A DNA stretch of 59,940 nt from Patescibacteria group bacterium (GCA_041662665.1 JBAZSC010000004.1:76464-136403); one strand, 5' to 3'. Shown: positions 1-59,940, counted from the first letter of the stretch. Program-made: numbers and translations. Notes: generated by a model not told the origin, from the letters alone.

Positions 1-8
1 CCAAAAAC

Positions 9-36
9 TTGACAAAATTACAACTTTTTATATAAT
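9..36 (+). promoter_or_regulatory. sigma70-like promoter (TTGACA-16 nt-TATAAT) for the 106..474 cassette
   Basis: TTGACA at 9-14 and TATAAT at 31-36; followed by a 5' UTR hairpin (67-91, CCCGCCAT/ATGGCGGG) and GGAGG at 94-98. Confidence 0.5.
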
Positions 37-105
37 TATCAGCACCCTAAAAATTTTACTGACAAACCCGCCATGCCAAAAAAATGGCGGGCTGGAGGAT
101 GAAAA

Positions 106-474
106 ATGGAAAAAAGGGTCAATCTCATTCTATTTTCCTGTGCATTATTACTCATTTATTCTATTGCCAATTCGCTACCGAGCAAACCACTCGAACAACT
201 AATCAATTCAATCGCCACTCTCCAAAAATCGGTTGACGCTCTAAAGCCAGCAAAGCCAAAAGAAACAAAACTCCCAGAACAACCTATTTCAAATCCAACC
301 ACCATTCCCAATCTTTGCCAAACAAAATGCCAGACTAAATTGAAAATAGTAGCTAAGGCAAGAGACGATTTTGCTCAAAAATGTGATGAGTTATATTCAG
401 ATGAATGCAAAGTGCAAGGCGTATCTCTTAGTCTTGCCATTTCAGCTTACCTCTTCTGCCTAAATCCGAATTGA
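106..474 (+). CDS. small secreted Cys-containing protein, orphan
   Basis: N-terminal signal-like hydrophobic segment (LILFSCALLLIYSIANS); GGAGG 7 nt upstream of ATG; own promoter and terminator. Confidence 0.6.
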   Translation: MEKRVNLILFSCALLLIYSIANSLPSKPLEQLINSIATLQKSVDALKPAKPKETKLPEQPISNPTTIPNLCQTKCQTKLKIVAKARDDFAQKCDELYSDECKVQGVSLSLAISAYLFCLNPN

Positions 475-493
475 CATTTTTCGTACTTTCACC

Positions 494-519
494 AAACCTT
501 GATATCAAGGTTTTTTTAT
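494..519 (+). terminator. rho-independent terminator
   Basis: AAACCTTG-ATAT-CAAGGTTT stem followed by a T-run. Confidence 0.7.
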
Positions 520-594
520 TGCTTAAAATTTAATATATTTTTATTTTATTACTTCATTAAAAATGCTATACTATAACTATAATTTATAATCAAT

Positions 595-2208
595 ATGACA
601 AAAACAAAATATCTTGTTCTAATTATTTTGGCATTATTTATCTTGCCAAACATTTCGTTTGCTAAAACCAAATACCACACTTTTACCAGAAAACAAATCA
701 AAATAAAATATGATGCCAAACTTTGGGCTAAAAAAAATCACAAAGTTTATTTAAATTTAAAATTAAAATCAAAACCAAATACAGTCAAAATAAAAATCAA
801 AAAAACTTCTTTAAGCCAAAAAGGCCGAAAAAATTTAAAAGGACTAAAAGTAAACAAGTTTGCCAAACAATACAAAAACAAAGTTGCAAAACAATTCTCT
901 ACTTTGAATCCTCTATTTCAGTCCGCCCAAACTTACAAAATAAAACACAAAAATTATAAAATAATTAAATTAAATTTTAATTTAAAAACCGGCGGATTGT
1001 TTGCTTATTATATCACTAATAAAAAAGTCTATTTGCAATACATCATCATTTGCCGTCAGCCAGATATTACAATTTATAATCAAGATTTAAGAAAGATAAC
1101 GCAATCTTTAAGAATTTTGCCAGATAACACTGCTCCAACTTTTGCTGGAACGATGAATGCAGTGTCAACCAGTACCTCTTCAATTACTTTGTCTTGGGAT
1201 GAAGCAACTGACACTGTGTCATATCCAGAAAATATTAAATATCTGATTTATCAAGCTAATCAATTAGAAGAACAAGATTATGCCACGCCAAATTACACAA
1301 CCGAAAAAGGCGCAACATCATATCAAATCAATAATCTACAAGAATCAACTTCTTATTATTTTGTTGTTCGAGCCGAAGATGAAGCCGGAAATTTGGAATC
1401 CAATCAAACCCAAGCGATTGCCACAACAAAAGCAACTTCAAATGACAATCCAACTGCTGGTAGTCTGCAAAATGTTACTTATCAATCTAATGGCTCAACA
1501 GTTGTTGGAAGGATGTATCGACCTAACGGCGCTGGTCCTTTTCCAGCAATTGTTTTTAACCATGGCGGAATTACTCCAGTAGATCCTTCTGTTAATGACG
1601 CTAGAATCAATGCTTTACGTCAAGGCGATACTTATGCTGTTTTAGCCACAGCCTATCGAGGAGACACTCTCTCTGGAGGGAATCTAAGTCTTAGCCTAGG
1701 TGACGTTAATGACACCTTGGCAGCAATTGAATATCTAAAAAGTAAAAGCTATATTGACTCAAACAGAATTGCAATGTACGGGGAAAGCAGAGGTGGCAAT
1801 GTTACTCTATCCGCTGCTGAAAGAACAACCGAAATGAAAGCTGTTGTTACATGGTACCCATACACCAATATCACAACATTCTGTGATTATCTTAATGAAA
1901 ATGTCTATCCAGGCGCTTGTCTTCTTTATGCTGATTTTTATGGCTTAGCAGATTCTGACCATAATGTTCGTATTGCTTCACCAATCAATTTTGTATCTCG
2001 CTTAACTTCGCCATTGCAAAATAGTCATGGTACAGCTGACACTACAGTACCCTATTCCCAAAGCGTTGAACTAAATACTGCCATGACTGGCAAATCAAAT
2101 TACACTTTTTATGAATATGTTGGTGCTGATCATGGTGGTAGTGCTGTTTGGGCAACAGATGGAACTGCAATGCAGAGGCTTCATGAATTTATTGCCAGCT
2201 ATTTATAA
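595..2208 (+). CDS. secreted FN3-domain / alpha-beta serine hydrolase (S9 / dienelactone-hydrolase-like)
   Basis: Signal/anchor ILALFILPNISFA; FN3-like segment (SSITLSWDEATD...YYFVVRAED); GESRGG nucleophile elbow, GTADTTVP and DHG motifs. Confidence 0.75.
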   Translation: MTKTKYLVLIILALFILPNISFAKTKYHTFTRKQIKIKYDAKLWAKKNHKVYLNLKLKSKPNTVKIKIKKTSLSQKGRKNLKGLKVNKFAKQYKNKVAKQFSTLNPLFQSAQTYKIKHKNYKIIKLNFNLKTGGLFAYYITNKKVYLQYIIICRQPDITIYNQDLRKITQSLRILPDNTAPTFAGTMNAVSTSTSSITLSWDEATDTVSYPENIKYLIYQANQLEEQDYATPNYTTEKGATSYQINNLQESTSYYFVVRAEDEAGNLESNQTQAIATTKATSNDNPTAGSLQNVTYQSNGSTVVGRMYRPNGAGPFPAIVFNHGGITPVDPSVNDARINALRQGDTYAVLATAYRGDTLSGGNLSLSLGDVNDTLAAIEYLKSKSYIDSNRIAMYGESRGGNVTLSAAERTTEMKAVVTWYPYTNITTFCDYLNENVYPGACLLYADFYGLADSDHNVRIASPINFVSRLTSPLQNSHGTADTTVPYSQSVELNTAMTGKSNYTFYEYVGADHGGSAVWATDGTAMQRLHEFIASYL

Positions 2209-3922: not shown

Positions 3923-3963
3923 TTCTGCATTTTCTGCGTTAACTTCTGCGTTTTTTCTGCGAT
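3923..3963. repeat. intergenic word repeat, TTCTGCG(T/A)T family (4 copies)
   Basis: ttctgcattttctgcgttaacttctgcgttttttctgcgatt; the same word recurs at ~25258, ~28900, ~32250. Confidence 0.8.
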
Positions 3964-3994
3964 TAAATTATTTAACAATTTAACAATAGAACAA

Positions 3995-5149
3995 TTGAGC
4001 AATACAACAATTATTGTCCACTACTCTGAAATCGGTCTTAAAGGCAGAAATAGGAATATCTTTGAAAACAAACTAATTAAAAACATAAAAGCCCACATTA
4101 ATCAATTGGGCTCTTTTAAACTTGTCCATTTGCACGATCGTATTTTGATTGAAATCTCTCAACTCTCACCTCTCATATCCCAAGCTCTTCAAAAAACATT
4201 CGGCATCGCCAATTTCGCAATTGCCAAAACAACAAAATTAGATCTAAACGAAATAAAAGAGCAAGTTTTAAACCTCGCCAAAACAAAAGAATTTACCACT
4301 TTTGCTATTCAAGCCAGTCGTTCCAACAAAAAGTTTCCGCTCACTTCTCAACAAATTAACGAACAAGTCGGTGGAGTAATTTTAGATAATTTAAAAAATA
4401 AAAAAGTAAAATTAAAAAATCCTAATTTAACTATTTATGTTGATATTTTAAAAGACCAAGCTCTAATTTATTCTGAAAAAATCAAAACTTTCGGTGGCTT
4501 ACCAACTGGCACAGCAGGCAATGTTATCTCTTTAATTTCCGGGGGCATTGATTCGCCCGTTGCTTCTTTTCAAATCATGAAACGAGGCTGTCAAATTATT
4601 TTTTGTCATTTCCATTCTTACCCGCAGACTTCAATTGAATCACAAGACCAAGTCAAAAAATTAGTTAGTATTTTAGATCAATATCAGCAAAATTCTAAAT
4701 TATACTTAATTCCAATCCTGGACATTCAAAAACAAATTGTTGCCAAATGCTCTGCCAAACTTCGCGTTGTTTTATACCGCAGAATGATGATGCGAATCGC
4801 CACTAAAATCGCAGAATTAGAAAATGCCAAAGCTTTAATTACCGGCGATTCAATCGGTCAAGTCGCTTCCCAAACTTTAGAAAATATTCAAGCAATTTCC
4901 AATGCTACAGACTTGCCAATTTTTCGCCCACTAGCTGGATTAGACAAAGAAGAAATAATAACTTATGCAAAAAAAATAGAAACTTACGAAACTTCAATCC
5001 AACCTTTTGGCGATTGCTGTTCTCTCTTTATTCCAGATAGTCCAGAAACAAAAGCAAAATTAGATGAAGTTTTAAAAAATGAACGAGAATTAGAAATTGA
5101 TAAATTAATTAATGATTCGTTTCAACAATTAGTTATTAAGCAATTTTAA
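3995..5149 (+). CDS. thiI: tRNA 4-thiouridine synthase ThiI (THUMP + PP-loop, no rhodanese domain)
   Basis: YSEIGLKGRNR N-terminus, PP-loop SGGIDSPVA; TTG start. Confidence 0.85.
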   Translation: MSNTTIIVHYSEIGLKGRNRNIFENKLIKNIKAHINQLGSFKLVHLHDRILIEISQLSPLISQALQKTFGIANFAIAKTTKLDLNEIKEQVLNLAKTKEFTTFAIQASRSNKKFPLTSQQINEQVGGVILDNLKNKKVKLKNPNLTIYVDILKDQALIYSEKIKTFGGLPTGTAGNVISLISGGIDSPVASFQIMKRGCQIIFCHFHSYPQTSIESQDQVKKLVSILDQYQQNSKLYLIPILDIQKQIVAKCSAKLRVVLYRRMMMRIATKIAELENAKALITGDSIGQVASQTLENIQAISNATDLPIFRPLAGLDKEEIITYAKKIETYETSIQPFGDCCSLFIPDSPETKAKLDEVLKNERELEIDKLINDSFQQLVIKQF

Positions 5150-5151
5150 AT

Positions 5152-5175
5152 AAAAAAAAGACATTTTATTGTCTT
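5152..5175. terminator. bidirectional hairpin terminator (thiI / 5180..5572)
   Basis: AAGACA-TTTTAT-TGTCTT flanked by an A-run on the + strand. Confidence 0.6.
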
Positions 5176-5179
5176 AATA

Positions 5180-5572
5180 TCAAAGAACTTTGAAAGTAAT
5201 CTTTATGCCTCCAACATGCATAATGTCATACTCAATCAAGATTAGTCCTTCACAAACTTGTTTCATGTCCGCTATAGTAGGACAAAAGAAATCCAGACGA
5301 CGTTCCTGAGCTATGACTTCAATTGCTCCTTGTTCCAAAAGATTTCTAAAAACCATCTCCACATGTTCTATTCCAAGAAAAATCGCAGATTTGCTTAGCA
5401 ATATAACTGCTTTTTTCAAAGCTTCATCACGCCTTGCTTTTTCCCAATCAATCCTTTCTTGCCATTTCCTTTGCTCTTCTTCCAATAGCTTGACTACTGA
5501 AGTAGCTCGCTGAAAAAAACATAACTGATTTCCCAAATCCAATGACATTTTTCTTTTTTCATCCTCTGTCAT
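5180..5572 (-). CDS. orphan protein, SD-led cassette
   Basis: AGGAGGGAGG immediately upstream of ATG; E/R/W/C-rich composition unlike neighbours; terminator downstream. Confidence 0.6.
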   Translation of the reverse strand: MTEDEKRKMSLDLGNQLCFFQRATSVVKLLEEEQRKWQERIDWEKARRDEALKKAVILLSKSAIFLGIEHVEMVFRNLLEQGAIEVIAQERRLDFFCPTIADMKQVCEGLILIEYDIMHVGGIKITFKVL

Positions 5573-5641
5573 TTCCTCCCTCCTTTGAAGGTAAAAAGAA
5601 CTTAATACAATAATATATCAGTAAAAATCATAACGCGCAAT

Positions 5642-5667
5642 AAAAAAAGAAGACATCAAAGTCTTCT
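5642..5667 (-). terminator. rho-independent terminator of 5666..6154
   Basis: AGAAGAC-N6-GTCTTCT followed by a T-run on the minus strand; overlaps the stop codon. Confidence 0.6.
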
Positions 5668-6154
5668 ACAAGTGCAAAAAGGTACCTTTTTCAAAACATG
5701 GCTTAAAAATCAATTCAATCGTTACAACATCATCACGCATATCTATCTCTGTAACAAAAATATCAATAATATCTTGCCAACCAAATCTCAAAGATTCTAG
5801 TTCAGAATAAAATTCTGCTCGCTTGCTTTTTGGCACAAACAATCTGATTTCTTGCTGTTCGCCACAAATCACTTTCTGAAAAACATTGTAAAAATCAATC
5901 CTCGCAAAACTTTCCAATTTTTCACCACGCAACCAATAAAACGGAAACAAGAATTCAACTTCTGGAAGAATCTGCTTTCCAAATCGATCTTTGTAATCAT
6001 GAACTCGATTTCTGAACAACTTCAAATAATGCAAGATTGAAACATGAAATTGTTGAAACCTTTCAACGACATGGCTATCAGCAGAACACAAAATCGTTTC
6101 TGCCAAATCCAACATGATTGCCATTACCATTTTTCTTTTCAATTTATCTACCAT
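5666..6154 (-). CDS. orphan protein, SD-led cassette (start moved to the internal ATG after GGAGGGAGAGGAG)
   Basis: ORF-track start 6193 lies in the leader; the SD precedes M14 (MVDKLKRK...). Confidence 0.6.
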   Translation of the reverse strand: MVDKLKRKMVMAIMLDLAETILCSADSHVVERFQQFHVSILHYLKLFRNRVHDYKDRFGKQILPEVEFLFPFYWLRGEKLESFARIDFYNVFQKVICGEQQEIRLFVPKSKRAEFYSELESLRFGWQDIIDIFVTEIDMRDDVVTIELIFKPCFEKGTFLHL

Positions 6155-6198
6155 CTCCTCTCCCTCCTTTTTCGGCAGGCATAAAAAGAGCATCTAAC

Positions 6199-6227
6199 AA
6201 TATACCAAGATATTAAAATATTATCAA
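6199..6227 (-). promoter_or_regulatory. sigma70-like promoter (TTGATA-17-TATATT)
   Basis: Read on the minus strand upstream of 5666..6154. Confidence 0.4.
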
Positions 6228-7500: not shown

Positions 7501-7566
7501 AAGATTAAAACACAAATCCCAAATCCCAAATTCCAAACAAATTACAAATCACAAAATACAAAAAAA

Positions 7567-19194: not shown

Positions 19195-19195
19195 C

Positions 19196-32364: not shown

Positions 32365-32388
32365 ATAAAAAAAGCACAAATTGTGCTT
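32365..32388 (-). terminator. terminator of 32395..33510
   Basis: AAGCACAA/TTGTGCTT palindrome with a T-run on the minus strand; near-identical to 33697-33720. Confidence 0.6.
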
Positions 32389-32394
32389 AAGGTA

Positions 32395-33510
32395 CTATTT
32401 CATTCTTGAAAGAACTGCGTTCTGATGTTCCTGCACCTCTCTTTCTTTGCGTAATCTTGTTTCAACTCTTTCTCTGCCTTCAGCAATTTTACGCAAAAGT
32501 ACAAGTGCTAATTCTGGATCATCTTTGCCATATTCTGCATGCCATCTAGTTGCTAGATCTAAGTCCTCTTGGTCATAGATTAAAAATCCTTTTTCATCGC
32601 TGAAACCCACGTTTTCAAAAACCATATATCTGACATATCTTCTCATGATTTCAAGAGCATAAACGTCATCTTCTGTCAGAGTACCAATAAGAGCAAGCAG
32701 TAATCTTTCATTGTAGGTTGGAAATAATCTGCAACCTTTCAAATTGAGCGCAAGCAGAAAGCCGATCTGATCAGCAAAAAGCGCAATTGAATATGGATTT
32801 TTTTTCAAGCCAACGAATGATGTAACGCGATCCGCATAGTGAGCAAACGCGCTCTCATGTTCTGCGCGAGGTTTCGCCTCTCCTTGTAATTCTGCCCTGA
32901 CAGTTACTCTCATCTTCAAATCTGCCAATCTCTTGTAGCGTTCGTTAACTTTAGGATTCCACATGAGATGTGAAAACGGATTATATCCTGAACAATCATC
33001 CATGTTGTTAAAGCAGACCAAATCGTTCAGAGAAATCCTGTTAAACAAATTATCAGCATCTGGTCCTTCAGGCAAATAGCCCAAGAGTGCAATCATCCAG
33101 GAATTATACCGATTAGCAAGCGAAAGATGATCCGTAAATTCATCTTTGCCTTCAAGTGTCAACCGAAAGAAGCTGACAACCAAATCAACAATATATTCAA
33201 TAAACTTTTCGCAATTAGCAACCAGGTCAAGTTCAAAACCATAAATACTAGAAAATGGCGTTACTAAATTCCAATTCTTTGGTGCGTTTTTTGGAGTTGG
33301 TGCAAGTAAGGCCAATATTGCACGCGCCTTGAATCTGTCGTTATAATCACCTTTTAGAATATCTACAAAGTAGCTGATAGAATCTCGTTTTGTTAGCTCG
33401 TGCCATTGTTTCCAAATCTCTTCATCAGCTTCAACAAAAAATCGCGGCCACCGTCTCTTGATGTCAGCAACCAACATTTCAGTTTTCGTTGCGCCTCTGA
33501 AAATTCCCAT
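32395..33510 (-). CDS. orphan 371-aa protein, SD-led cassette
   Basis: GAGGAGG upstream of M14 (MGIFRGATK); W/R/E/F-rich, GC visibly above the backbone. Confidence 0.6.
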   Translation of the reverse strand: MGIFRGATKTEMLVADIKRRWPRFFVEADEEIWKQWHELTKRDSISYFVDILKGDYNDRFKARAILALLAPTPKNAPKNWNLVTPFSSIYGFELDLVANCEKFIEYIVDLVVSFFRLTLEGKDEFTDHLSLANRYNSWMIALLGYLPEGPDADNLFNRISLNDLVCFNNMDDCSGYNPFSHLMWNPKVNERYKRLADLKMRVTVRAELQGEAKPRAEHESAFAHYADRVTSFVGLKKNPYSIALFADQIGFLLALNLKGCRLFPTYNERLLLALIGTLTEDDVYALEIMRRYVRYMVFENVGFSDEKGFLIYDQEDLDLATRWHAEYGKDDPELALVLLRKIAEGRERVETRLRKEREVQEHQNAVLSRMK

Positions 33511-33668
33511 CTTTCTTCCTCCTCTTCTTGGGGTTGGCTTTAGAATCATTTTTCCGCATTAAAATCCGCTCAATCCGCGCAATTTGTTCATTTTTTTATA
33601 ACATATTTTTGTGCAAGAATGATTTTGAAACACTCAAAATGAATTTTTAATTTTAAAGAGCATCTTTG

Positions 33669-33697
33669 AATATATCTTAATTTAAATTAATGGTCAA
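33669..33697 (-). promoter_or_regulatory. sigma70-like promoter (TTGACC-17-TATATT)
   Basis: Minus-strand reading upstream of 32395..33510. Confidence 0.45.
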
Positions 33698-33729
33698 TAA
33701 AAAAAGCACAAAATGTGCTTAAAAAAGTG

Positions 33730-34005
33730 CTAAATTTTTCCTTCAAGAGCCTTTTTCAATCTTTCTGCCAGCAGAGCGAGATAAACAACAACAAAGGATC
33801 CAATTAGTCCACTCATTATAGCTGCCACTATCGCCCTAAAAGTCATATTTTCATAGACCAACGGAATCGCATTAGTTAGTGACAAGTTTTGATTCTGCAA
33901 AACACATTGTGCTCCAATTCCCATCAGTACAAATGCGCTAAAACTGAAAAGAACAAATGTCATAAATCCAAGCAAACACATTTGAACCAAGTCTCCTTTT
34001 TTCAC
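33730..34005 (-). CDS. small 2-TM membrane protein, SD-led cassette
   Basis: AAGGAGG 7 nt before a GTG start; two hydrophobic helices. Confidence 0.5.
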   Translation of the reverse strand: MKKGDLVQMCLLGFMTFVLFSFSAFVLMGIGAQCVLQNQNLSLTNAIPLVYENMTFRAIVAAIMSGLIGSFVVVYLALLAERLKKALEGKI

Positions 34006-34078
34006 TCTAGCCTCCTTTGGTTGCTAGCCGTATTTCGGTACTAGCAACTTTGTCTACAACGAACTCTTCTGACAATAA

Positions 34079-34107
34079 AAAATAGCATGAAAACAAAAAT
34101 TTGTCAA
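34079..34107 (-). promoter_or_regulatory. sigma70-like promoter (TTGACA-17-TATTTT)
   Basis: Minus-strand reading upstream of 33730..34005. Confidence 0.4.
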
Positions 34108-36261: not shown

Positions 36262-36282
36262 AAAAAACAGACATAAAGTCTG
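36262..36282 (-). terminator. terminator of 36294..36713
   Basis: CAGAC-ATAAA-GTCTG with a T-run on the minus strand; duplicated at 36825-36847. Confidence 0.55.
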
Positions 36283-36293
36283 TGCAATTCAGT

Positions 36294-36713
36294 TTAAGGT
36301 GCAATTGGAGTCGAGTTGGCTTCTCTTCTTAAAATTAAGACTGCTTTTTCGCCAAATTCTGTTTGGGTGATTGAAACATCAAAAAGATATCTTCCACTAG
36401 GTACAAATTTCGAAGCTACTTTTATGTCAATCAGTCCATTTTGAGGTTTTTCTTTTTCGCTAACATCAAGAAGTGCCATAATTTTAATTCGACTAATCAT
36501 GGTTTCCTTCAGGCTCAATGGCGGACACATCACAAGAACCAGATTTCCATCAATTCTGTAGCTAACTTCAATCCGTTTTTCAACAGGTACGATCTGTATT
36601 TCAGTTCCGCATTGCCTAATTGAGTCTAAAAGAATCATACTCACCATTCTTACAGCTGGATTCGAAGTAAATTCTACAGGTGCATCTTTGCAATCTCTTT
36701 CTGCTTCTGTCAT
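36294..36713 (-). CDS. stand-alone GspE/PilB-type secretion-ATPase N2 domain (no Walker motifs)
   Basis: GTEIQIVPVEKRIEVSYRIDGNLVLV...ISRIKIMALLDVSEKEKPQNGLIDIKV...FDVSITQTEFGEKAVLILR matches the domain preceding Walker A in T2SS/T4P ATPases; GGAGGGAAGGG SD before M24. Confidence 0.65.
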   Translation of the reverse strand: MTEAERDCKDAPVEFTSNPAVRMVSMILLDSIRQCGTEIQIVPVEKRIEVSYRIDGNLVLVMCPPLSLKETMISRIKIMALLDVSEKEKPQNGLIDIKVASKFVPSGRYLFDVSITQTEFGEKAVLILRREANSTPIAP

Positions 36714-36792
36714 TTTCCCTTCCCTCCTCTCTTGGGATGAATTTAAGGTACAATAAACAAAACTAATCAAAACACTGATCAATTATAATATA

Positions 36793-36821
36793 ATTATATC
36801 ATTTTTTAATATCTTTTTCAA
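36793..36821 (-). promoter_or_regulatory. sigma70 promoter TTGAAA-17-TATAAT
   Basis: Minus-strand reading; duplicated at 37366-37394. Confidence 0.55.
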
Positions 36822-36851
36822 GCATAAAAAAACAGACATAAAGTCTGCGAT

Positions 36852-37277
36852 CTAAAGTGCAAATGATGTTGGGTTTACTTCTCGATTCAAAATCAATATT
36901 GCTTTCTCGCCGAATTCTGTTTGTGAAACTGTAACATCAAAATGAAATCGTCTATCAGGCTTGTCTTGAACGCTGACCAACACATTTAACACGCCAGTTT
37001 GCGGCATTTCCGTCATATCTTCGTTTAGGAGAGCAATTTCTTTGATATGAGCAATGGCATAGCCATGCAAATTGAGCTGCGGACGCATCACAAGAGTAAG
37101 ATGTCCATCAATCATGAATTCAATTTCAACTTTGTTCCTAAAAGGAGTAACGTGAATTTCTGTTGCTCCTTGTATTACAGCATCTAGCAACATATTATTT
37201 ATCATCCATTCTGCTGGATTTGATATTGCTCCAGGCGCAGACGAAATGCTTTGGCAATCTCTTTTTTCTTCTGCCAT
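36852..37277 (-). CDS. stand-alone GspE/PilB-type N2 domain, tandem paralog
   Basis: GATEIHVTPFRNKVEIEFMIDGHLTLV...IAHIKEIALLNEDMTEMPQTGVLNVLV...FDVTVSQTEFGEKAILILNR; GGAGGG SD preceded by (AG)8. Confidence 0.65.
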   Translation of the reverse strand: MAEEKRDCQSISSAPGAISNPAEWMINNMLLDAVIQGATEIHVTPFRNKVEIEFMIDGHLTLVMRPQLNLHGYAIAHIKEIALLNEDMTEMPQTGVLNVLVSVQDKPDRRFHFDVTVSQTEFGEKAILILNREVNPTSFAL

Positions 37278-37365
37278 TTTCGTTTTCCCTCCTCTCTCTC
37301 TCTCTCTGAGCCAAAATAAATTACAACAAACTAAACTAATCAAAACGTTGATTAATTCTAATATA

Positions 37366-37394
37366 ATTATATCATTTCTTAATATTTTTTTCAA
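37366..37394 (-). promoter_or_regulatory. sigma70 promoter TTGAAA-17-TATAAT
   Basis: Minus-strand reading; lies inside the over-extended ORF-track ORF 36852..37394. Confidence 0.55.
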
Positions 37395-38548: not shown

Positions 38549-38551
38549 GAA

Positions 38552-38630: not shown

Positions 38631-38633
38631 ACC

Positions 38634-38858: not shown

Positions 38859-38887
38859 TTGACAATCTGCTTGCCTTATTGTATCCT
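38859..38887 (+). promoter_or_regulatory. sigma70-like promoter (TTGACA-17-TATCCT)
   Basis: Upstream of 38938..39600. Confidence 0.45.
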
Positions 38888-38937
38888 GATTTAAACGTTC
38901 TTTCCGACAATTTCCTAGCCAGAGGAGGAGGAAAGCG

Positions 38938-39600
38938 ATGAGCAACAGAGAGCCAGAAATCACACTGCCAGTAGTCATTCAACGGGACTTTTTCACTTCT
39001 CTTTCCGACGATCAAGCTATTCAGATCTTGATTCCTATCATTGGCGAAAAAGAAGCTCGCGCTTATGTCCAGAAGTGCCGTTATTTTGCAATTGACCATT
39101 TCAACAACTACGAGGGTACAATCTTTTGGTTGGTTAAAGCTGGCTACACACTGAAACAGCATGCTTCCAAACTTGGTCCGTGCTACAAGAATTTCGATTA
39201 TTTACAGACCTGGAATTTCAACGATGAGCCAACTTTTGACAGTCTTGTTTTCTGGGTTCCCAGACTTGTTCCTGACGGCATTCGAAAAACAGCAAATGAA
39301 CAGTTGAATTATCTCGCCAGACTTAGCAAGAAGTACGATCTGCCAGCCGATCATCTTACTGATTTCGGCAGTGTCACCTTAAACAGCGGTCTCATTTTGA
39401 GCTACTTCAACCAGACAAAGGAACGAGTTCCTCCGGATCGGTTGTGGATCAGGACTTCTGCTCGCGGCTCCGATGGCAGTCGTTTCGACCTGGGCGACTT
39501 TGATGAGCGAGGCCTCTACTGCAGCGGCTACGATTTGGGTGGCGGTTTCGTTGACGATCTTGGCTGTTTCGCTCTAGGTATTGTAAAGCTCGCAGCATAA
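38938..39600 (+). CDS. orphan 220-aa protein, SD-led cassette inside the 16S/tRNA-Ile spacer
   Basis: GAGGAGGAGG 7 nt before ATG; highest GC of any CDS here by eye (3' end near 50%); hairpin terminator follows. Confidence 0.6.
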   Translation: MSNREPEITLPVVIQRDFFTSLSDDQAIQILIPIIGEKEARAYVQKCRYFAIDHFNNYEGTIFWLVKAGYTLKQHASKLGPCYKNFDYLQTWNFNDEPTFDSLVFWVPRLVPDGIRKTANEQLNYLARLSKKYDLPADHLTDFGSVTLNSGLILSYFNQTKERVPPDRLWIRTSARGSDGSRFDLGDFDERGLYCSGYDLGGGFVDDLGCFALGIVKLAA

Positions 39601-39623
39601 TTATTTAAATTTTTAGTTCTTTC

Positions 39624-39652
39624 AACTCTTGATGTATTTCAAGAGTTTTTTT
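39624..39652 (+). terminator. rho-independent terminator
   Basis: AACTCTTGA-N6-TCAAGAGTT then a T-run. Confidence 0.7.
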
Positions 39653-39657
39653 ATTTA

Positions 39658-39925: not shown

Positions 39926-41541
<1,616 letters not shown>

Positions 41542-41961: not shown

Positions 41962-41989
41962 TTGACAGAAAAATTAAGGAAGATATACT
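41962..41989 (+). promoter_or_regulatory. sigma70 promoter TTGACA-16-TATACT
   Basis: Upstream of 42042..42479; same architecture repeated at 42513-42541. Confidence 0.5.
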
Positions 41990-42041
41990 TAATTAAGAGT
42001 AAAAATGTTCTTTTAACAGCGGCAAAAGGAGGGAAGGAAAA

Positions 42042-42479
42042 GTGGAAAAAGACAGGATAAAGAAAATACTACCAAGAGTTACTATCATTACAGGAGTTGT
42101 ATCTATGTTGTTACTCTTGTTTGCAGCTTCTCGTCAATCAACTGCAGAATTAGTTCATCAAAAAGTTGGAAAGGTAATTACTACTATCTTTGGTCCACAA
42201 AAGGAGCCTGAAAAATTTTTTTATTCTGAATTTGAAAAAGGCAAGCTATACTTTGACGTAAAGCCGTATGTCATAGATAATGGTCAAGGCCTAGCATTCA
42301 TCTATATCGGTCAATTTCGCAAAAATGACTTTGGATTTCGTCCTGATATCTATCATCGCGAAAGGATTGAATCTTTCTTTGCCTATTGGAAAAAGCAGTA
42401 TCCAGAACATTCTTCAAAGATCAAAAGTTTTTCTCCTACTGCTCAAAATAATTTGTATTTAGTACTTTACGGTCCATGA
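42042..42479 (+). CDS. membrane-anchored orphan protein (paralog A)
   Basis: AAGGAGGGAAGG SD, GTG start, one N-terminal TM, conserved DNGQGLAFIYIG and YWKKQYPEH blocks shared with 42605..43000. Confidence 0.6.
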   Translation: MEKDRIKKILPRVTIITGVVSMLLLLFAASRQSTAELVHQKVGKVITTIFGPQKEPEKFFYSEFEKGKLYFDVKPYVIDNGQGLAFIYIGQFRKNDFGFRPDIYHRERIESFFAYWKKQYPEHSSKIKSFSPTAQNNLYLVLYGP

Positions 42480-42512
42480 CAACAGATTCTGTTGTTTTTT
42501 TATTTTTTATTA

Positions 42513-42541
42513 TTGACAGAAAGTTAATTCAAGCGTATACT
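42513..42541 (+). promoter_or_regulatory. sigma70 promoter TTGACA-17-TATACT
   Basis: Upstream of 42605..43000. Confidence 0.5.
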
Positions 42542-42604
42542 AATTAGTCAGAAAAAAGTCCGTACTCTTAAATGTTTCGCACGCCGCAGAGGGAGGAGGA
42601 GATA

Positions 42605-43000
42605 ATGACACAAGCAAAAAAACCAAAAATTGATGCGCGTATGATTATTTTAAGCAGTATTGTTAGTTCAGCTATTTTGCTTGTAATTGGATACGGAGTA
42701 TTAAAACTTGGTGTTTTTATCACGCACTGGATGGTGACAGAGAAACCAGTTCAAGGATCAACTGAAACTTCCAAAACTGATTTAAGTAACTCTATCGTTA
42801 TCGATCATGGTCAGGGAGTAGCATTCATCTATCTTGGAAACTTGCCAGGTAGCAAAGAAATTCCTTTTTACGCAGAAAAATTTGAAGAGCCATTTGCTCA
42901 GTGGAAAAAAGAATATCCAACTCATGCACAGAAAATCACTGGAATAACTACTTTAAGAAACAATAACTATTTGTACATTATTCTTTACTCAACCGACTAA
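42605..43000 (+). CDS. membrane-anchored orphan protein (paralog B)
   Basis: GGGAGGAGGAG SD before ATG 42605; DHGQGVAFIYLG and QWKKEYPTH blocks. Confidence 0.6.
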   Translation: MTQAKKPKIDARMIILSSIVSSAILLVIGYGVLKLGVFITHWMVTEKPVQGSTETSKTDLSNSIVIDHGQGVAFIYLGNLPGSKEIPFYAEKFEEPFAQWKKEYPTHAQKITGITTLRNNNYLYIILYSTD

Positions 43001-43019
43001 CAGCATCATAGCTGTTTTT

Positions 43020-48076: not shown

Positions 48077-48079
48077 AAG

Positions 48080-48929: not shown

Positions 48930-48967
48930 ATGCACTTTAAAAATTTGCCTTCAGCGAAGGAGGAAAA

Positions 48968-49168
48968 ATGCACAAGTTAAGAGGAATATTTTGTTTTTTT
49001 CTAATGTTACTGATTATGATTAGCATTGATTGGTCTACTTTCAAATTATTTTATCACTTGTCAGATTCTTATGGGATATTTTTTTATGCGCCAATTCCCG
49101 CTATATCTCTTTTGTTGAGCATTTTTGTTGCAATATCCGTATATCTTAAAATCGGAGGAGAATTTTAG
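48968..49168 (+). CDS. small 2-TM orphan protein
   Basis: GAAGGAGG SD 5 nt upstream of ATG; two hydrophobic helices. Confidence 0.45.
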   Translation: MHKLRGIFCFFLMLLIMISIDWSTFKLFYHLSDSYGIFFYAPIPAISLLLSIFVAISVYLKIGGEF

Positions 49169-49186
49169 TCCGAAAGGAGGGACGAC

Positions 49187-49438
49187 ATGGCCTGGAGTGC
49201 GGCACAAGCAATTCGAGATTATCTGGCAGGCAAAGAATTGAGAATGATTAATTTTTGGTGCGCAGTCAATCCTTATATGCAAGGATACAAAGAAAAGAAT
49301 GAGTTGCCAGAAGTTGACGAGCAGACCTGGAAAGATCTTTTTGATGAGTGTTCATATCTCGTTGAAAGTGGTAGTATGTGCGGGACAATTCATAGAGTAT
49401 TGCCTTTGTCAAAGCAGGAGAACAAATGCAATATCTGA
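49187..49438 (+). CDS. small orphan protein
   Basis: AAAGGAGGG SD; C/W-rich 83 aa. Confidence 0.5.
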   Translation: MAWSAAQAIRDYLAGKELRMINFWCAVNPYMQGYKEKNELPEVDEQTWKDLFDECSYLVESGSMCGTIHRVLPLSKQENKCNI

Positions 49439-49785
49439 TGGCAATTAGGCAATTTGTTGATAGCATCGCCCATTTTGAAAATGAAAGTCATGAAAGGTGG
49501 TTCTACATTAGTCTTAGTGCTTTCGTGATCAGTCTAATTTTGCAAATATTTCGAAAAACTAGATTCCCTTTCGTATTCTTATCTCTAGCTTTTTCGCATT
49601 GTTTTACTTCTATTAGTGCATTTGTAATTGTTGTCTTGATGCAAATAAAGAGTGAAGCATATTCTATCAATTGCATTTGGTTTAATACTGTTATGGTAGT
49701 AATCTATATTGCGCTTTACGGTCTTGCTATCGTAATTAAGAAATTGAAACCAGAATTAAAAGTAAGTACCCTTGAAGAGCATTAA
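49426..49785 (+). CDS. orphan membrane protein (3-4 TM)
   Basis: Start overlaps the previous stop region; CAGGAG upstream; hairpin terminator GAGC-ATTA-AGCTC then T-run at ~49775-49798. Confidence 0.5.
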   Translation: MQYLMAIRQFVDSIAHFENESHERWFYISLSAFVISLILQIFRKTRFPFVFLSLAFSHCFTSISAFVIVVLMQIKSEAYSINCIWFNTVMVVIYIALYGLAIVIKKLKPELKVSTLEEH

Positions 49786-49804
49786 GCTCTTTTTTTATTT
49801 TTAC

Positions 49805-49833
49805 TTGAAATTATCTTAAGACAGGTATAAAAT
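49805..49833 (+). promoter_or_regulatory. sigma70 promoter TTGAAA-17-TAAAAT
   Basis: Upstream of 49883..50161. Confidence 0.5.
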
Positions 49834-49882
49834 AGAGCATTAGTGAATGTTCTTTTCTCAAGGGAGGAAGGAGGGAAAGAGA

Positions 49883-50161
49883 ATGCTCGGCAAGAGATTT
49901 CCAGTCTGGGTTGGAGTCTATGATAAGACAGCAAAGATCTACGAAATTTTCCGGATTGTTCGTGGTGAGAAACAAGTTGGTATCAGGATCAAGTTGGAAA
50001 TGTCGATTGATGAACAGAATAACGAAATTCTCTGTCAAGGAGAAAATATCAGTATGCACCTTCATTCATTTCATGAATTCAAACTTTCCGAAAATCTCGA
50101 AGCTCTTGTCGCTCGGCAAAAAAATGAAATCGTCAGCTGGATCAGGAGACGAATCCTTTAG
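49883..50161 (+). CDS. orphan 92-aa protein, SD-led cassette
   Basis: GGGAGGAAGGAGGGAAAG leader before ATG 49883; terminator 50170-50193. Confidence 0.55.
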   Translation: MLGKRFPVWVGVYDKTAKIYEIFRIVRGEKQVGIRIKLEMSIDEQNNEILCQGENISMHLHSFHEFKLSENLEALVARQKNEIVSWIRRRIL

Positions 50162-50169
50162 CACTATCT

Positions 50170-50193
50170 AACCTTGTTAATCAAGGTTTTTTT
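50170..50193 (+). terminator. rho-independent terminator
   Basis: AACCTTG-TTAAT-CAAGGTT then a T-run; same stem as the terminator at 494-519. Confidence 0.7.
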
Positions 50194-50658: not shown

Positions 50659-50975
50659 CAAAAAAGGTAAAAAAAAGCATTGAACAATATATCAATATTC
50701 TAAAAAAAGATAATCTTCCAATTAACGAAGTGATTCTTTTTGGTTCACAAGCCAAAGATCAAGCCCATGAATGGAGCGATATTGATATTTGTGTAATCTC
50801 GCCAAAATTTAAAGACAGTTTTAAGGCTTTGCATTATTTGCTAAAAAAGTCATATGAAGTAGAAGACAATATTATCGAACCGCATCCATTCAATCCGAAG
50901 GACTTTAGTAATAATAATGATCCTCTTGTCTGGGAAATCAAACAAACTGGCAAAGTAATTTACAAAAAACAATAA
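50655..50975 (+). CDS. minimal nucleotidyltransferase (MNT antitoxin)
   Basis: LFGSQAKDQAHEWSDIDICVI (GS-X10-DxD) motif; 4-nt overlap with the HEPN gene. Confidence 0.8.
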   Translation: MTKKVKKSIEQYINILKKDNLPINEVILFGSQAKDQAHEWSDIDICVISPKFKDSFKALHYLLKKSYEVEDNIIEPHPFNPKDFSNNNDPLVWEIKQTGKVIYKKQ

Positions 50976-53495: not shown

Positions 53496-53909
53496 ATGGC
53501 AAATGAAACAGGACCAAGCGCAGAAGAAATGGGATTAAAACAAGAAGAAACAGAGATTGGCACTGAACAACGACCAACCGATGCTGCTATTGATCAAAAA
53601 GCAGATGCAATATTGGCACTTAGAGACGCCCAAGAAGAAGCAAGCGTAAGAGCTTATAATTCAAAAATGGCAAGAGAACTAGCACAAGATCCAGAACTAG
53701 CACTGCAAGAAGAAAATGAATGGACAACCATTGAAAAAACAAGATATCAACACGAAAAAGATTTTATAGATGGTTTGGCAAAAGAAGGACCAAAAGATTA
53801 TCTAAAAGGAATTCTGGAAGAACGAGGACTGGCAGGTTACACGCAAGAAGATTTCAAAAAGCTTCATGATTCAGTAACCGCTAAAGAACAGCAAGGTGGT
53901 GCAAAATAA
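53496..53909 (+). CDS. acidic orphan protein
   Basis: E/D/Q-rich 137 aa; terminator ATCCCG-CACAA-CGGGAT then T-run at ~53925-53950. Confidence 0.5.
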   Translation: MANETGPSAEEMGLKQEETEIGTEQRPTDAAIDQKADAILALRDAQEEASVRAYNSKMARELAQDPELALQEENEWTTIEKTRYQHEKDFIDGLAKEGPKDYLKGILEERGLAGYTQEDFKKLHDSVTAKEQQGGAK

Positions 53910-55547: not shown

Positions 55548-56087
55548 TTACTTTTTACTAGTTATCTTATTGATTATTTTATTAATTTGCTTAACTAATT
55601 CTTTTCTATTGCCGCTATTATCAACCACAATTTTTTGTTCACGTATTGGTTCAAATCTAGATTTGATAATATGATATGTTTTCATTGTTACTTCGCTTTC
55701 TTTTGCTTTAAATCTCGCTTCAATTCTTTTCTCTGTAATCTCTTCATCGCATTTCACATAAATAATATACAATTTTGTCTTAAACAATTCAGCCAGTTTT
55801 TTTGCTTGATCAACATATGCTTTCTTGAAAAATGTCGCATTCAAAATAACACTTTGGCCATTCATCAATCTTTTTGCACCATTAGAAAACAAAGTATTAT
55901 AAACTGAGCTCTTAACTTCGCGAGCCCAAAAATTTTTATTCTTCAATTCATCAATAATTTTCTTAGTTGGCTTTAATTGATCTGATTCTATCATCTGCTC
56001 CTTTAATTTCGCTCTCAACATTTCGCCAACAGTACTTTTGCCAACGCCAGGAAGGCCACAAATCAAAATCAACATAACAATATTCAA
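55548..56087 (-). CDS. P-loop kinase / AAA-type ATP-binding protein
   Basis: ICGLPGVGKST Walker A near the N-terminus; TTG start at 56087 or ATG at 56075. Confidence 0.7.
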   Translation of the reverse strand: MNIVMLILICGLPGVGKSTVGEMLRAKLKEQMIESDQLKPTKKIIDELKNKNFWAREVKSSVYNTLFSNGAKRLMNGQSVILNATFFKKAYVDQAKKLAELFKTKLYIIYVKCDEEITEKRIEARFKAKESEVTMKTYHIIKSRFEPIREQKIVVDNSGNRKELVKQINKIINKITSKK

Positions 56088-56100
56088 TATTTAATATTCA

Positions 56101-56188
56101 ATATCCTAATATCTCAATATCCTAATATCTCAATATCCTAATATCTCAATATCCTAATATCTCAATATCCTAATATCTCAATATCTCG
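56101..56188. repeat. perfect tandem repeat, 16-nt unit ATATCCTAATATCTCA x5 plus a partial copy
   Basis: Units at 56101, 56117, 56133, 56149, 56165; degenerate copies at 56079-56100. Confidence 0.9.
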
Positions 56189-56679: not shown

Positions 56680-56801
56680 GAAAATAAGTTAATTAGTAAA
56701 CTAGTTACTAGTAACTAGTTACCAGTAACAATCTTATTATATACAAAATAATCAAAAAAAACAAAAAAACCAGCTAAAAAACTGGTATATAATAAAGAAC
56801 G

Positions 56802-57227
56802 TCAAACTGAAGAGAGCTTTGCCTGCAACCATACCTCTGCTTCCGAACGATCTTTCGTAACATAGAAAAGTTCATCATCTTCAGGGATTCCTGTGAATTC
56901 ATCCCTCGAAGGCTCTTCAACGTAAAAGGAAAAGTATTGAGTTGCCTCTCCTTCTTGTCCGTTATAAACAAGCCGTACAAGCTGTTCATTTCCAAGACCC
57001 GAAAATTCGAATCTAGAACGGATCTTATCGTCGGGGTCAAGATAGTTTGGCATCATTGGAGAGACCGGAAATACCTTTCCAGATGCCACCTCTTCTCGAT
57101 GATTGCCTTTTTTGAAATATGCTATCCAGGCGAATGCCGTTGCTTCCAGCAGTCGATTTCTTGCTTCCTCTTCCTTTTTCAGTGCTTCGCTCCAATCTAC
57201 ACTCAATTGCTCGATGACAGTCATCAT
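56802..57227 (-). CDS. orphan protein, SD-led, translationally coupled to 57224..57493
   Basis: GGAAGGAGGAAGG inside the end of the upstream gene; ATGA overlap; hairpin terminator at ~56768-56790. Confidence 0.55.
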   Translation of the reverse strand: MMTVIEQLSVDWSEALKKEEEARNRLLEATAFAWIAYFKKGNHREEVASGKVFPVSPMMPNYLDPDDKIRSRFEFSGLGNEQLVRLVYNGQEGEATQYFSFYVEEPSRDEFTGIPEDDELFYVTKDRSEAEVWLQAKLSSV

Positions 57228-57493
57228 GACCTTCCTCCTTCCTGAGCTTTCTTCATTGATTCATATTCAGCCTGAAAGAACTGCGTTGCCTCGATCTTCA
57301 ACCTTTCAGCATCTTCAGGCATACAGCGCACGATCAAGAAATGTCTTTCGCCTCCAAAATCAAACGTATGTGGCCAAGAAATCTCAATGTGTTGTTCTTG
57401 AAAATGAAAAAACGTTCTTCGCAATACTTCTTGATCTCTTGCAGTCGGCCCATCAATGGACAACAGTACAAACCAGAAAGGTTCCTTACCCAT
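57224..57493 (-). CDS. orphan protein, SD-led cassette
   Basis: GAGGAGGGAGAG before M13 (MGKEPFWF); ORF-track start 57529 overlaps the -10 element. Confidence 0.55.
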   Translation of the reverse strand: MGKEPFWFVLLSIDGPTARDQEVLRRTFFHFQEQHIEISWPHTFDFGGERHFLIVRCMPEDAERLKIEATQFFQAEYESMKKAQEGGRS

Positions 57494-57527
57494 CTCTCCC
57501 TCCTCTGTGCTCTTGGGACAATACAAC

Positions 57528-57556
57528 AATCTAGCACAAAAATATTATTTTGTCAA
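57528..57556 (-). promoter_or_regulatory. sigma70 promoter TTGACA-17-TAGATT
   Basis: Minus-strand reading upstream of 57224..57493. Confidence 0.5.
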
Positions 57557-58914: not shown

Positions 58915-59043
58915 AATTTAATTTAAATAATATCTCTAATTCTATCAGAAAATCTTTCAAAGTCAAGATTTTACTTTGTCCGCCGATTTATCCACCGAAG
59001 CTAAAGCGAAGGTGGAAGCTCAGAAGAGCGAAGGCGGAAAATA

Positions 59044-59072
59044 TTGACATAAGAACAAAATCTAGTTATTAT
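59044..59072 (+). promoter_or_regulatory. sigma70 promoter TTGACA-17-TATTAT
   Basis: Upstream of 59119..59580. Confidence 0.5.
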
Positions 59073-59118
59073 ACATTATACTCTTTATTTATGCAAGCAA
59101 GAGGAGGAGGAAGAGAAA

Positions 59119-59580
59119 ATGACACCAGCCAGAACATTTGAGAACGCTTCAGATGATCTGCTTCTTCTTTGGGTTGAGCAAGGCAATAAGACTTACAGTG
59201 CTCGTATAAAGCTTGTCAAAAGAAATCTACCTGAAATCTGCCAGATTTGTTTGACTAATCAAGATGGCACTCTAGAATATGTTGTCGTAGCTTGCCAAGC
59301 GCCAAAAGATGAGGACTTGCCAGATGGAATTTACTATTATCGATGTGATGCTCATGGAAAATTCGTCAGAGAGCAAGATCTGTTCGCAACAATCTTGAGT
59401 TTGAAAGTTTTGCCAGCAAAAGTCCTTTGCAAAAGAGTTTTTGGTGAGGTCTGGAAAATTACTGATGAGAAGAACAGTTTTTCGAAATTAATCGGAAGAA
59501 CTCCAAATGATTCGCACTTGAAGAGAGACAAGACTCCACAAGAATTTCACACTCAAACTCTTGGTGGAGGAAAGCGATGA
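59119..59580 (+). CDS. orphan 153-aa protein, SD-led, coupled to an XRE regulator
   Basis: GAGGAGGAGG leader; ATGA overlap with the downstream HTH gene. Confidence 0.55.
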   Translation: MTPARTFENASDDLLLLWVEQGNKTYSARIKLVKRNLPEICQICLTNQDGTLEYVVVACQAPKDEDLPDGIYYYRCDAHGKFVREQDLFATILSLKVLPAKVLCKRVFGEVWKITDEKNSFSKLIGRTPNDSHLKRDKTPQEFHTQTLGGGKR

Positions 59581-59798
59581 ATCTTGGTGTAGCAATTAAG
59601 GCTGTAAGAACAAAAAGAAATCTTTCTCAAGCCGAATTTGCTAATTTAGTTGGCTGTTCAGAAAGTCACATCTCATTGATGGAAACAAACAGAAGAAAAC
59701 CAAGTTTTGAAATGCTAGTAAAAATATCTGAAATAACTGAAACGAAATTATCACAGCTCTTTCTCATAGCGGAAATGCTAGATACTACGAATAAATAA
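59577..59798 (+). CDS. XRE-family helix-turn-helix transcriptional regulator
   Basis: IKAVRTKRNLSQAEFANLVGCSESHISLMETNRRKPS HTH_3 pattern; terminator ATAGCC-ATCT-AGGCTAT then T-run follows. Confidence 0.8.
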   Translation: MNLGVAIKAVRTKRNLSQAEFANLVGCSESHISLMETNRRKPSFEMLVKISEITETKLSQLFLIAEMLDTTNK

Positions 59799-59859
59799 CA
59801 CAAAAAACGCACTTTATAGCCATCTAGGCTATTTTTTTTGCAATGGGTAATAACTGGAT

Positions 59860-59940
59860 TTAGCCACCAAATTTAGTAACTAAATCAATTAATAATTCTT
59901 CTTGTTTGTCTAGCGAAATCATTCTATGATTAAATTTCCA
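59860..59940 (-). CDS. C-terminal fragment of a CDS truncated by the window edge
   Basis: Open minus-strand frame ...FNHRMISLDKQEELLIDLVTKFGG ending at TAA (59860-59862 rc). Confidence 0.3.
   Translation of the reverse strand, partial: WKFNHRMISLDKQEELLIDLVTKFGG

Follow-up and report, generated by a model that had tools for sequence, protein, structure and literature searches.

What are genes with strong Shine-Dalgarno (SD) sequences in a genome segment whose housekeeping genes start without one? The question is raised by a 59,940-base, 32.5% GC chromosome segment from Patescibacteria (candidate phyla radiation, CPR; GCA_041662665.1 JBAZSC010000004.1:76464-136403), hereafter the window. A preliminary description had listed nine firm loci, and one possible one, at which self-contained cassettes (promoter, SD-bearing leader, one to three open reading frames (ORFs) of no recognisable family, terminator) occupy intergenic slots of an SD-less backbone, and had taken them for a distinct gene class, either acquired or specially translated. 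All nine firm loci were recovered, each with promoter-like and terminator-like sites placed as expected, and the analysis supports such a class; that it is specially translated is read from sequence only. We consider it moderately probable that a single clade of Patescibacteria exchanges these cassettes horizontally as its flexible gene pool, each of them being an autonomous, moron-like expression unit.

SD-led units in an SD-less backbone

Every GGAGG in the window was scanned for a start codon 3-13 nt downstream. This yielded 18 ORFs of 66-371 amino acids (aa) with a GGAGG-type site (AGGAG only, in one case) 4-11 nt before the start, arranged in 14 transcription units at 10 loci. They make up 18 of the 65 protein genes (28%) and 12% of the window's DNA, and no ribosomal-protein gene is among them. 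The pattern GGAGG-N3-11-ATG occurs 25 times versus 5.8 +/- 2.5 times in dinucleotide-preserving shuffles, an approximately 4-fold excess; none of 100 shuffles reached 25.

Duplex energies between the 20 nt upstream of each start and the 16S rRNA tail separate the two gene sets. The 18 cassette ORFs range from -7.4 to -15.2 kcal/mol (mean -12.7), whereas the 47 backbone genes range from +3.0 to -5.9 kcal/mol (mean 0.0); the distribution is bimodal and the ranges do not overlap. Since the class is defined by its SD, a p-value on these energies would be circular; the bimodality and the independent features given below are not. The absence of an SD, first noted for a dozen housekeeping starts, thus extends to 47 of 47 backbone starts. 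These core genes do without it while the 16S rRNA keeps its anti-SD (Table 1), and the same tail is found in the closest two relatives, GCA_964574655.1 (loci L003 and L096) and GCA_028699085.1 (loci L004 and L095), at L003 and L004. Backbone start regions are nearly devoid of G and C (G <=4% at -7 to -1), whereas those of the cassettes contain 45-78% G at -14 to -6 and fold more stably between -30 and +30 (-7.9 vs -4.2 kcal/mol, p=5e-4). The leaders have a common purine tract resembling CCAAGAGGAGGAAG, so that pairing over 8-9 bp with the 16S tail is possible.

Promoter, terminator and SD function are called here at the motif level. With a stringent promoter definition (TTGA[CA]A-N16-18-TAnnnT, both strands) the whole window holds 23 motifs, 10 of which sit 35-90 nt upstream of the 14 units (10/14); only 3/47 backbone genes have one within 120 nt. 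All 14 units end in a short GC stem-loop plus T-run, a predicted terminator. The promoter ascribed to every locus is thus borne out for most units. One exception is unit 11, at 48948, where no stringent promoter was found and which may be read through from the gene of an FtsJ-type methyltransferase.

Composition, which does not enter the definition of the class, differs strongly as well. Cassette ORFs exceed the backbone in GC (0.377 vs 0.320) and in GC at third codon positions (GC3; 0.331 vs 0.222, Mann-Whitney p=2e-8). Of their Leu codons 13% are TTA, compared with 48% for backbone genes; AAG, CAG and the two-fold codons ending in C are used about twice as often, and TAA is the stop codon of 5/18 cassette ORFs versus 30/47 backbone genes. 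At the protein level, Lys, Asn and Ile are depleted and Cys, Arg, Phe, Met and His enriched. The preliminary description had the GC shift and the excess of Cys, Arg and Phe right, whereas the enrichment it claimed for Trp is not significant (p=0.09) and Glu is unchanged. De novo gene birth was rejected as the main source of the cassette ORFs: intergenic DNA has 27% GC against 30-46% (mean 38%) in these ORFs, several of which have homologues or known domains.

Table 1. Positions of the SD-led units and of the 16S rRNA tail in the window; promoters, SD sites and terminators are motif-level predictions.
Feature	Coordinates	Strand	Promoter	SD	ORF(s)	Terminator	Remarks
Unit 1	9..520	+	9-36 (TTGACA-16-TATAAT)	94-98	106-474 (122 aa)	494-513	N-terminal signal- or transmembrane-like segment; Cys-rich; no Pfam family
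Unit 2	5152..5640	-	promoter-like, 5640-5612 (TTGCGC-17-TATATT)	5575-5587	5180-5572 (130 aa)	hairpin and T-run just downstream	no Pfam, PHROG or PADLOC family match
Unit 3	5648..6227	-	6227-6199	~6159-6167	5666-6154 (162 aa)	5667-5648	between thiI and tyrS, opposite strand
Unit 4	32372..33697	-	promoter-like, 33697-33669	33514-33522	32395-33510 (371 aa)	32388-32372	terminator nearly identical to that of unit 5
Unit 5	33704..34107	-	34107-34079	34011-34015	33730-34005 (91 aa)	33720-33704	two transmembrane-like segments
Unit 6	36267..36821	-	36821-36793 (TTGAAA-17-TATAAT, with TG)	~36723-36727	36294-36713 (139 aa)	36283-36267	
Unit 7	36832..37394	-	37394-37366	~37288-37292	36852-37277 (141 aa)	36848-36832	
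Unit 8	38859..39647	+	38859-38887	38921-38931 (GAGGAGGAGG)	38938-39600 (220 aa)	39624-39647	ORF GC 46%; between 16S rRNA and tRNA-Ile, opposite strand
16S rRNA 3' tail	39926..39941	-					canonical anti-SD GGATCACCTCCTTTCT, read from the sequence; placed by Rfam SSU
Unit 9	41962..42496	+	41962-41989	42028-42032	42042-42479 (145 aa)	42478-42496	N-terminal transmembrane anchor; paralogue of unit 10 (33% identity)
Unit 10	42513..43016	+	42513-42541	42590-42599	42605-43000 (131 aa)	42999-43016	
Unit 11	48948..49792	+		GGAGG before first and second ORF, AGGAG before third	48968-49168 (66 aa, transmembrane); 49187-49438 (83 aa); 49426-49785 (119 aa, transmembrane)	49774-49792	
Unit 12	49805..50188	+	49805-49833	49863-49874	49883-50161 (92 aa)	50170-50188	
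Unit 13	56769..57556	-	57556-57528	GGAGG before each ORF	57224-57493 (89 aa); 56802-57227 (141 aa)	56786-56769	ORFs overlap; between tig and the CBS gene
Unit 14	59044..59832	+	59044-59072	59100-59110; GGAGG before second ORF	59119-59580 (153 aa); 59577-59798 (73 aa)	59816-59832	ORFs overlap

The backbone between these units encodes DnaA, DnaN, RuvC, YebC, ThiI, TyrRS, a class A penicillin-binding protein (PBP), bactofilin, TrmD, S16, SMC, RNase III, NusB, L32, trigger factor, and a glycosyltransferase and ATP-grasp block. An Rfam scan of the window returned only the 16S rRNA (39926-41545, minus strand), tRNA-Ile and tRNA-Ala; the leaders contain no known RNA element. The rRNA operon is split (37553-41545). 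The 16S gene carries its own terminator (39767-39746); beyond it lie unit 8, encoded on the opposite strand, tRNA-Ile, a pair of genes for membrane proteins (38285-38548 and 37664-38275) and tRNA-Ala. The 23S gene is not in the window, and the order of tRNA and membrane-protein genes is identical in L003 and L004. At 1620 nt, the 16S match is longer than its model (1533 positions), so the gene contains insertions. In L003, a 240-aa ORF with a LAGLIDADG-like motif (18901-19623, minus strand) lies inside the 16S region; it presumably specifies a homing endonuclease carried by an intron or insertion, and the window's 16S gene lacks it.

Short, degenerate tandem repeats with a 7-8 nt period crowd the intergenic DNA, among them CAATATCT x14, TTTGGAAT, ACTAGTT/TTAGTAA, GAACGTCA and the TTTCTGCGTTAGC family. 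Such arrays lie at 56078-56187, 43120-43169, 35662-35731, 39657-39704, 3929-4012, 28911-28942, 32258-32290, 7512-7566, 35131-35194 and 48071-48134, and there are many more. Most immediately precede SD-less backbone starts. Several of the families reappear at loci far apart, and L095, L096 and L100 have arrays of a similar kind.

Presence, absence and conservation in relatives

The relatives retrieved with the PBP and trigger factor were all Patescibacteria (CPR); in the closest two, both proteins are 85-91% identical. The backbone is collinear in two relatives at 72-98% protein identity, and the SD-led genes often have no counterpart there: in the regions covered, 24/28 backbone genes and 4/15 SD-led genes have a homologue in a relative (Fisher p=2e-4). 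At four slots L004 has a spacer of 56-110 nt where the window has 1-2 kb of cassette DNA. Upstream of 16S, 56 nt in L004 stand against 1218 nt in the window and replace units 9 and 10 together; from 16S to tRNA-Ile, where unit 8 lies, ~90 nt stand against 984 nt; next to tRNA-Ala, 59 nt against 1290 nt; and after the PBP gene, ~110 nt against 2131 nt. L003 has different, SD-less genes in two of these four slots. The 371-aa ORF of unit 4 is absent from both L003 and L004. In the more distant L098 and L100 (tig 56-60% identical), tig directly adjoins the CBS gene, which indicates that occupancy of the slot of unit 13 is derived. Two independent assemblies (L001 and L002) show the same cassette junctions as the window. 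The cassette ORFs are not ordinary conserved families that relatives hold in matching places. Together with the contrasts in composition and SD use, this means that none of the three outcomes named in the preliminary description as refuting a distinct class was observed.

The left edge of the cassette upstream of 16S bears a 37-nt, GC-rich, hairpin-like element (gtcatcccgaaccgcagtgagggatcccgag, ~41861-41897). It recurs with 95% identity at an unrelated locus upstream of a UDG gene (L096 14956-14992) and may be a small dispersed repeat.

The relatives have SD-led genes of their own. L095 carries eight, and L096 at least nine, genes with a strong SD, no Pfam family and raised GC3 among SD-less housekeeping genes, and two SD-led, Pfam-less, GC3-richer genes are found in L100. 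Those shared between the window and L095 or L096, or between L095 and L096, are 26-89% identical. Unit 11 has partial homologues in both loci, the ORF of unit 12 has homologues in L095 (89%) and L096 (26%), and the first ORF of unit 13 has a 70% homologue in L096. The 153-aa protein of unit 14 is weakly similar (28% over 53 aa) to a family of three SD-led paralogous genes (133-174 aa) upstream of tig in L095 (7073-8943) and L096 (7133-8881); the window ends before that region.

Shared SD-led orthologues have dN/dS ratios of 0.11-0.33, and are therefore real coding genes under purifying selection. They evolve fast, with dN of 0.16-0.24 versus 0.06-0.075 for tig and rnc, an approximately 3-fold difference. 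A GGAGG-type SD is kept in the orthologous pairs checked (window, L095 and L096) while synonymous sites are near saturation, which argues that the SD is under selection and not a mere relic; the exception is the L095 homologue of ORF 49883, with a partial SD only. In one pair, that of unit 13, the promoter is kept together with the SD.

Not all variable genes of the window are of this kind; a second, native-looking kind lacks the SD. A toxin-antitoxin pair of HEPN (50263-50658) and minimal nucleotidyltransferase (MNT; 50655-50975) genes, which neither close relative has, lacks an SD and resembles the backbone in GC3. The end of its -10 box (TATACT) lies 6 nt before the ATG, so the mRNA may be leaderless. 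Three further genes are missing from close relatives, 44890-45369 (minus strand), 53496-53909 (plus strand) and 20393-21361 (minus strand), two without a Pfam family and one an ATP-grasp enzyme. The first had been put forward as a possible cassette; it is accessory, being missing from L004, but its lack of an SD and its backbone-like GC3 (0.23) place it outside the class.

Low use of the SD by core genes is widespread across the Patescibacteria loci. Beyond the clade, 13 metagenome loci encode relatives of the 371-aa protein. The homologues in L083, L087, L088/L092 and L089 likewise have an SD and a higher GC content than the SD-less genes around them, with further small, SD-led, GC-rich ORFs close by; the one in L086 lacks an SD. 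The SD-led genes of L098 are clearly foreign, GC-rich metabolic genes (GC3 0.61 and 0.78).

Products of the units

Apart from the 371-aa ORF, family status was assessed with Pfam, PHROGs, PADLOC and tblastn against ~1.5 Mb of related loci. No Pfam family is matched by 15 of the 18 ORFs, and the only PHROGs and PADLOC matches are to a PilB domain and a helix-turn-helix (HTH). The early statement that the ORFs belong to no recognisable family therefore holds except for ORFs 36294, 36852 and 59577, and "orphan" is too strong for these three and for the 371-aa ORF. Signal- or transmembrane-like segments are found in 6/18 products.

ORFs 36294 and 36852 (units 6 and 7) are tandem paralogues with 45% aa identity. 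They match PF00437 at positions 5-109 (E=1e-13 and 5e-10) and align to PilB residues 200-312 of 588 (E=3e-21), that is, as a stand-alone N2 domain. Both end after this domain, with terminators directly following, and lack the Walker A/B ATPase domain; they are thus not ATPases, and could modulate the type IV pilus ATPase. Their promoter and 5' leader (36727-36835 vs 37300-37408) are ~90% identical over ~85 nt, whereas their coding DNA has 61% identity and nearly saturated synonymous sites. This suggests that the leader is constrained or has undergone gene conversion.

The gene pairs of units 13 and 14 each overlap by 4 nt. One partner, ORF 59577-59798, is an XRE-type HTH protein (HTH_3), and neither partner of either pair matches a toxin family in Pfam or PADLOC; the pairs may be toxin-antitoxin-like or regulatory.

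The 371-aa ORF is a member of a sizeable family without a name. Searched exhaustively with HMMER, 1.84 billion representatives yielded 231 relatives at E<=1e-3 (168 at E<=1e-10), all of ~350-460 aa and with at most 36% identity, whereas word-indexed searches, single or profile, found the query and one other protein only. From 40 family members AlphaFold built an all-alpha model of high confidence (pLDDT 88.7), which has no structural neighbour in PDB or BFVD (best template-modelling (TM) score ~0.26-0.29). For the 220-aa ORF of unit 8, the single-sequence AlphaFold model reached a pLDDT of only 35.

Origin of the units and comparison with known systems

The way in which translation starts appears to mark the flexible part of this genome, with an SD-less core and fast-evolving, variably present units that are SD-led. 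We suggest the following model. Each unit, with a near-consensus sigma-70 promoter, a leader of 35-90 nt, an extended SD, one to three ORFs and an intrinsic terminator, would be gained, lost or replaced in intergenic slots between conserved operons, presumably by recombination after horizontal transfer within a CPR-associated gene pool. The ribosome of the lineage retains a canonical anti-SD. Core genes would initiate on G/C-free, weakly structured AU-rich or very short leaders on which an SD is not needed, and the GC-richer, more structured cassette mRNAs would recruit the 30S subunit through 8-9 bp of SD/anti-SD pairing. Such a dependence would lead selection to keep the SD even in long-resident cassette genes and would explain why the anti-SD is retained. 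The products are heterogeneous, fast-evolving and lineage-specific, and include small membrane or secreted proteins, N2 domains, overlapping pairs and the all-alpha 371-aa protein.

Several observations weigh against this reading. No target-site duplication, shared terminal or boundary repeat or integrase was found at the cassette borders, and the junctions lie in AT-rich spacers. No donor emerged from PHROGs (the HTH and PilB domain apart), PADLOC, IMG/VR, INPHARED phages or PLSDB plasmids. Cassette genes that are old residents, with saturated dS, still have raised GC3, which simple amelioration after transfer does not predict. The variable genes with native-looking composition and no SD (the HEPN/MNT pair at 50263-50975 and the three listed with it) imply that being accessory is not enough to account for an SD. 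Promoters, terminators and SD function are called from motifs. Nor is an SD significantly associated with higher GC3 in a set of 37 Patescibacteria loci (p=0.13), so we confine the claim to this clade and several other lineages and do not extend it to the phylum. Of the two possibilities first considered, acquisition is supported by the synteny, as direct evidence of gain or loss at the slots, and qualified by cassette genes shared with relatives and by accessory genes without an SD.

The strongest competitor, though an unlikely one in our estimate, is that the SD-led genes are native, vertically inherited, lineage-specific genes that evolve fast (for example in host interaction or an arms race), their distribution resulting from divergence and differential loss; a need for high expression would then have brought consensus promoters, strong SDs and less AT-biased codons. 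Positional orthologues of several SD-led genes across species (26-89% identity) fit this, as do the small SD-led gene upstream of tig that is recognisable even in L100 (tig 60% identical), the faint homology of ORF 59119 to the SD-led paralogue family in the same slot of relatives, the approximately 3-fold higher dN and the third of the products that are membrane or secreted proteins. The clean indels and short spacers at four L004 slots and the adjacency of tig and CBS in outgroups count against this reading. Moreover, G- and C-ending codons are both shifted, together with stop choice, which looks compositional and not like translational selection, and the ribosomal-protein genes of the window show no such codon bias.

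About as doubtful, and if anything slightly more so, is a dedicated translation regulon, in which the SD is the point of the system and the SD/anti-SD interaction is kept as an orthogonal route that co-regulates lineage-specific genes. A possible mechanism, by analogy, is masking and unmasking of the anti-SD on the ribosome, as by bS21, bS18 and bS6 in Bacteroidia. This would account for an anti-SD conserved though no core gene uses it, for SDs preserved in orthologues despite saturated synonymous sites, for their unusual length and strength (-12 to -15 kcal/mol) and the CCAAGAGGAGG-like leader that recurs with them, and for a promoter and leader that have diverged less than the coding DNA between the tandem paralogues. 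Bacteroidia offer a precedent, in that their ribosomes are SD-blind and an autoregulated gene is SD-led (PMC9976891, PMC13000453). Yet regulation alone leaves the composition difference and the presence/absence polymorphism unexplained. The regulon would comprise ~28% of the genes as against one gene in Flavobacterium, and the window offers neither a regulator nor ribosomal-protein evidence, the genes for bS21, bS18 and bS6 lying elsewhere.

Decayed remnants of prophages, plasmids or integrative elements scattered over the chromosome are improbable. The units are moron-like, an XRE-type regulator is present, and the small membrane proteins and PilB-domain fragments may resemble superinfection-exclusion functions. 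However, the 60 kb contain no phage or plasmid hallmark gene, PHROG matches are limited to the HTH and the PilB domain, the scans of IMG/VR, INPHARED and PLSDB returned no relative, and the cassettes, spread over ten separate loci of 0.4-2 kb, are too short and scattered to be what is left of such elements. An artefact (chance ORFs or a mis-assembled chimaera), to which only the small size of some ORFs (66-92 aa) would point, is hardly credible given a 371-aa ORF in 32% GC DNA with a 231-representative family, domain matches for three ORFs, dN/dS of 0.11-0.33, a motif count far above shuffles and junctions repeated in independent assemblies.

A bolder reading is conceivable, and we hold it rather unlikely: SD/anti-SD pairing would survive as a separate, possibly switchable translation channel reserved for fast-evolving, exchangeable genes (~30% of genes), marking and co-regulating a flexible genome with host-interaction, exclusion or addiction functions. 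If true, such a channel would account for the retention of the anti-SD in some CPR lineages and its loss from others. The case raises the question of how two initiation modes run side by side in one minimal cell. If the split holds, SD strength alone would separate core from flexible genes in a major uncultured lineage and give an annotation handle on "dark" CPR accessory genes; the stand-alone PilB N2 domains, the 371-aa family and the small membrane proteins are candidates for episymbiont biology.

Among known systems, phage morons come closest in architecture. A moron is defined as extra DNA between syntenic genes, with deviating GC content and its own promoter and terminator (HK97/HK022 concept; Cumby, Davidson & Maxwell 2012, PMC3594210). 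The cassettes are alike in being extra DNA between genes adjacent in related genomes, in deviating GC, in having (at motif level) their own promoter and terminator, and in often encoding small membrane proteins. Morons, however, lie in phages or prophages, whereas the cassettes occupy ten loci in 60 kb of a cellular chromosome, next to dnaA, 16S rRNA and tig; no phage gene family was found in the window apart from the PHROG matches to the HTH and PilB domain, and we therefore call them moron-like, not morons. Nor does the moron definition include an initiation mode, which here sets the cassettes apart from the host's genes. Flexible genomic islands and islets share variable content at fixed slots, deviating codon usage, faster evolution and many hypothetical proteins; the cassettes differ in being single, 0.4-2 kb long and free of an integrase or tRNA-linked att site, and in having the SD as a class marker. 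Integron cassettes form promoterless arrays through an integrase and have attC ends, whereas those described here are dispersed on both strands with their own promoters. There is no integrase or transposase among the backbone proteins scanned, as the preliminary description had stated, and the 3' hairpins are short GC stems with T-runs, that is, terminators, no formal attC model having been run. For the N2 proteins the known counterpart is PilB/GspE (PF00437), whose N2 domain they share and whose C-terminal ATPase domain they lack.

For the translational side, the closest parallel is SD-independent translation in Bacteroidia, with SD-blind ribosomes, a retained but sequestered anti-SD and an SD-led rpsU (PMC7797042, PMC9976891, PMC13000453). 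Common to both are an SD-less core with A/U-rich starts, a canonical anti-SD and a minority of genes with a strong SD. In Flavobacterium, however, this minority is essentially one gene, rpsU, for autoregulation, whereas here it is ~28% of genes, all accessory or lineage-specific. The finding thus brings together SD-independent translation of core genes and moron-like accessory units, each of them known already. We have not found the combination described, and it occurs here at high density; our literature search returned no description of SD-led accessory genes in CPR. Within the same phylum, about half of the Parcubacteria 16S genes are reported to lack the anti-SD motif (Tsurumaki et al. 2022, PMC9297842). 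The clade studied here follows the same trend to SD-independent core initiation and, unlike them, keeps the anti-SD. SD-led cassettes would provide a selective reason to keep it where housekeeping genes no longer use the SD, and this predicts that Parcubacteria without an anti-SD have no SD-led accessory class.

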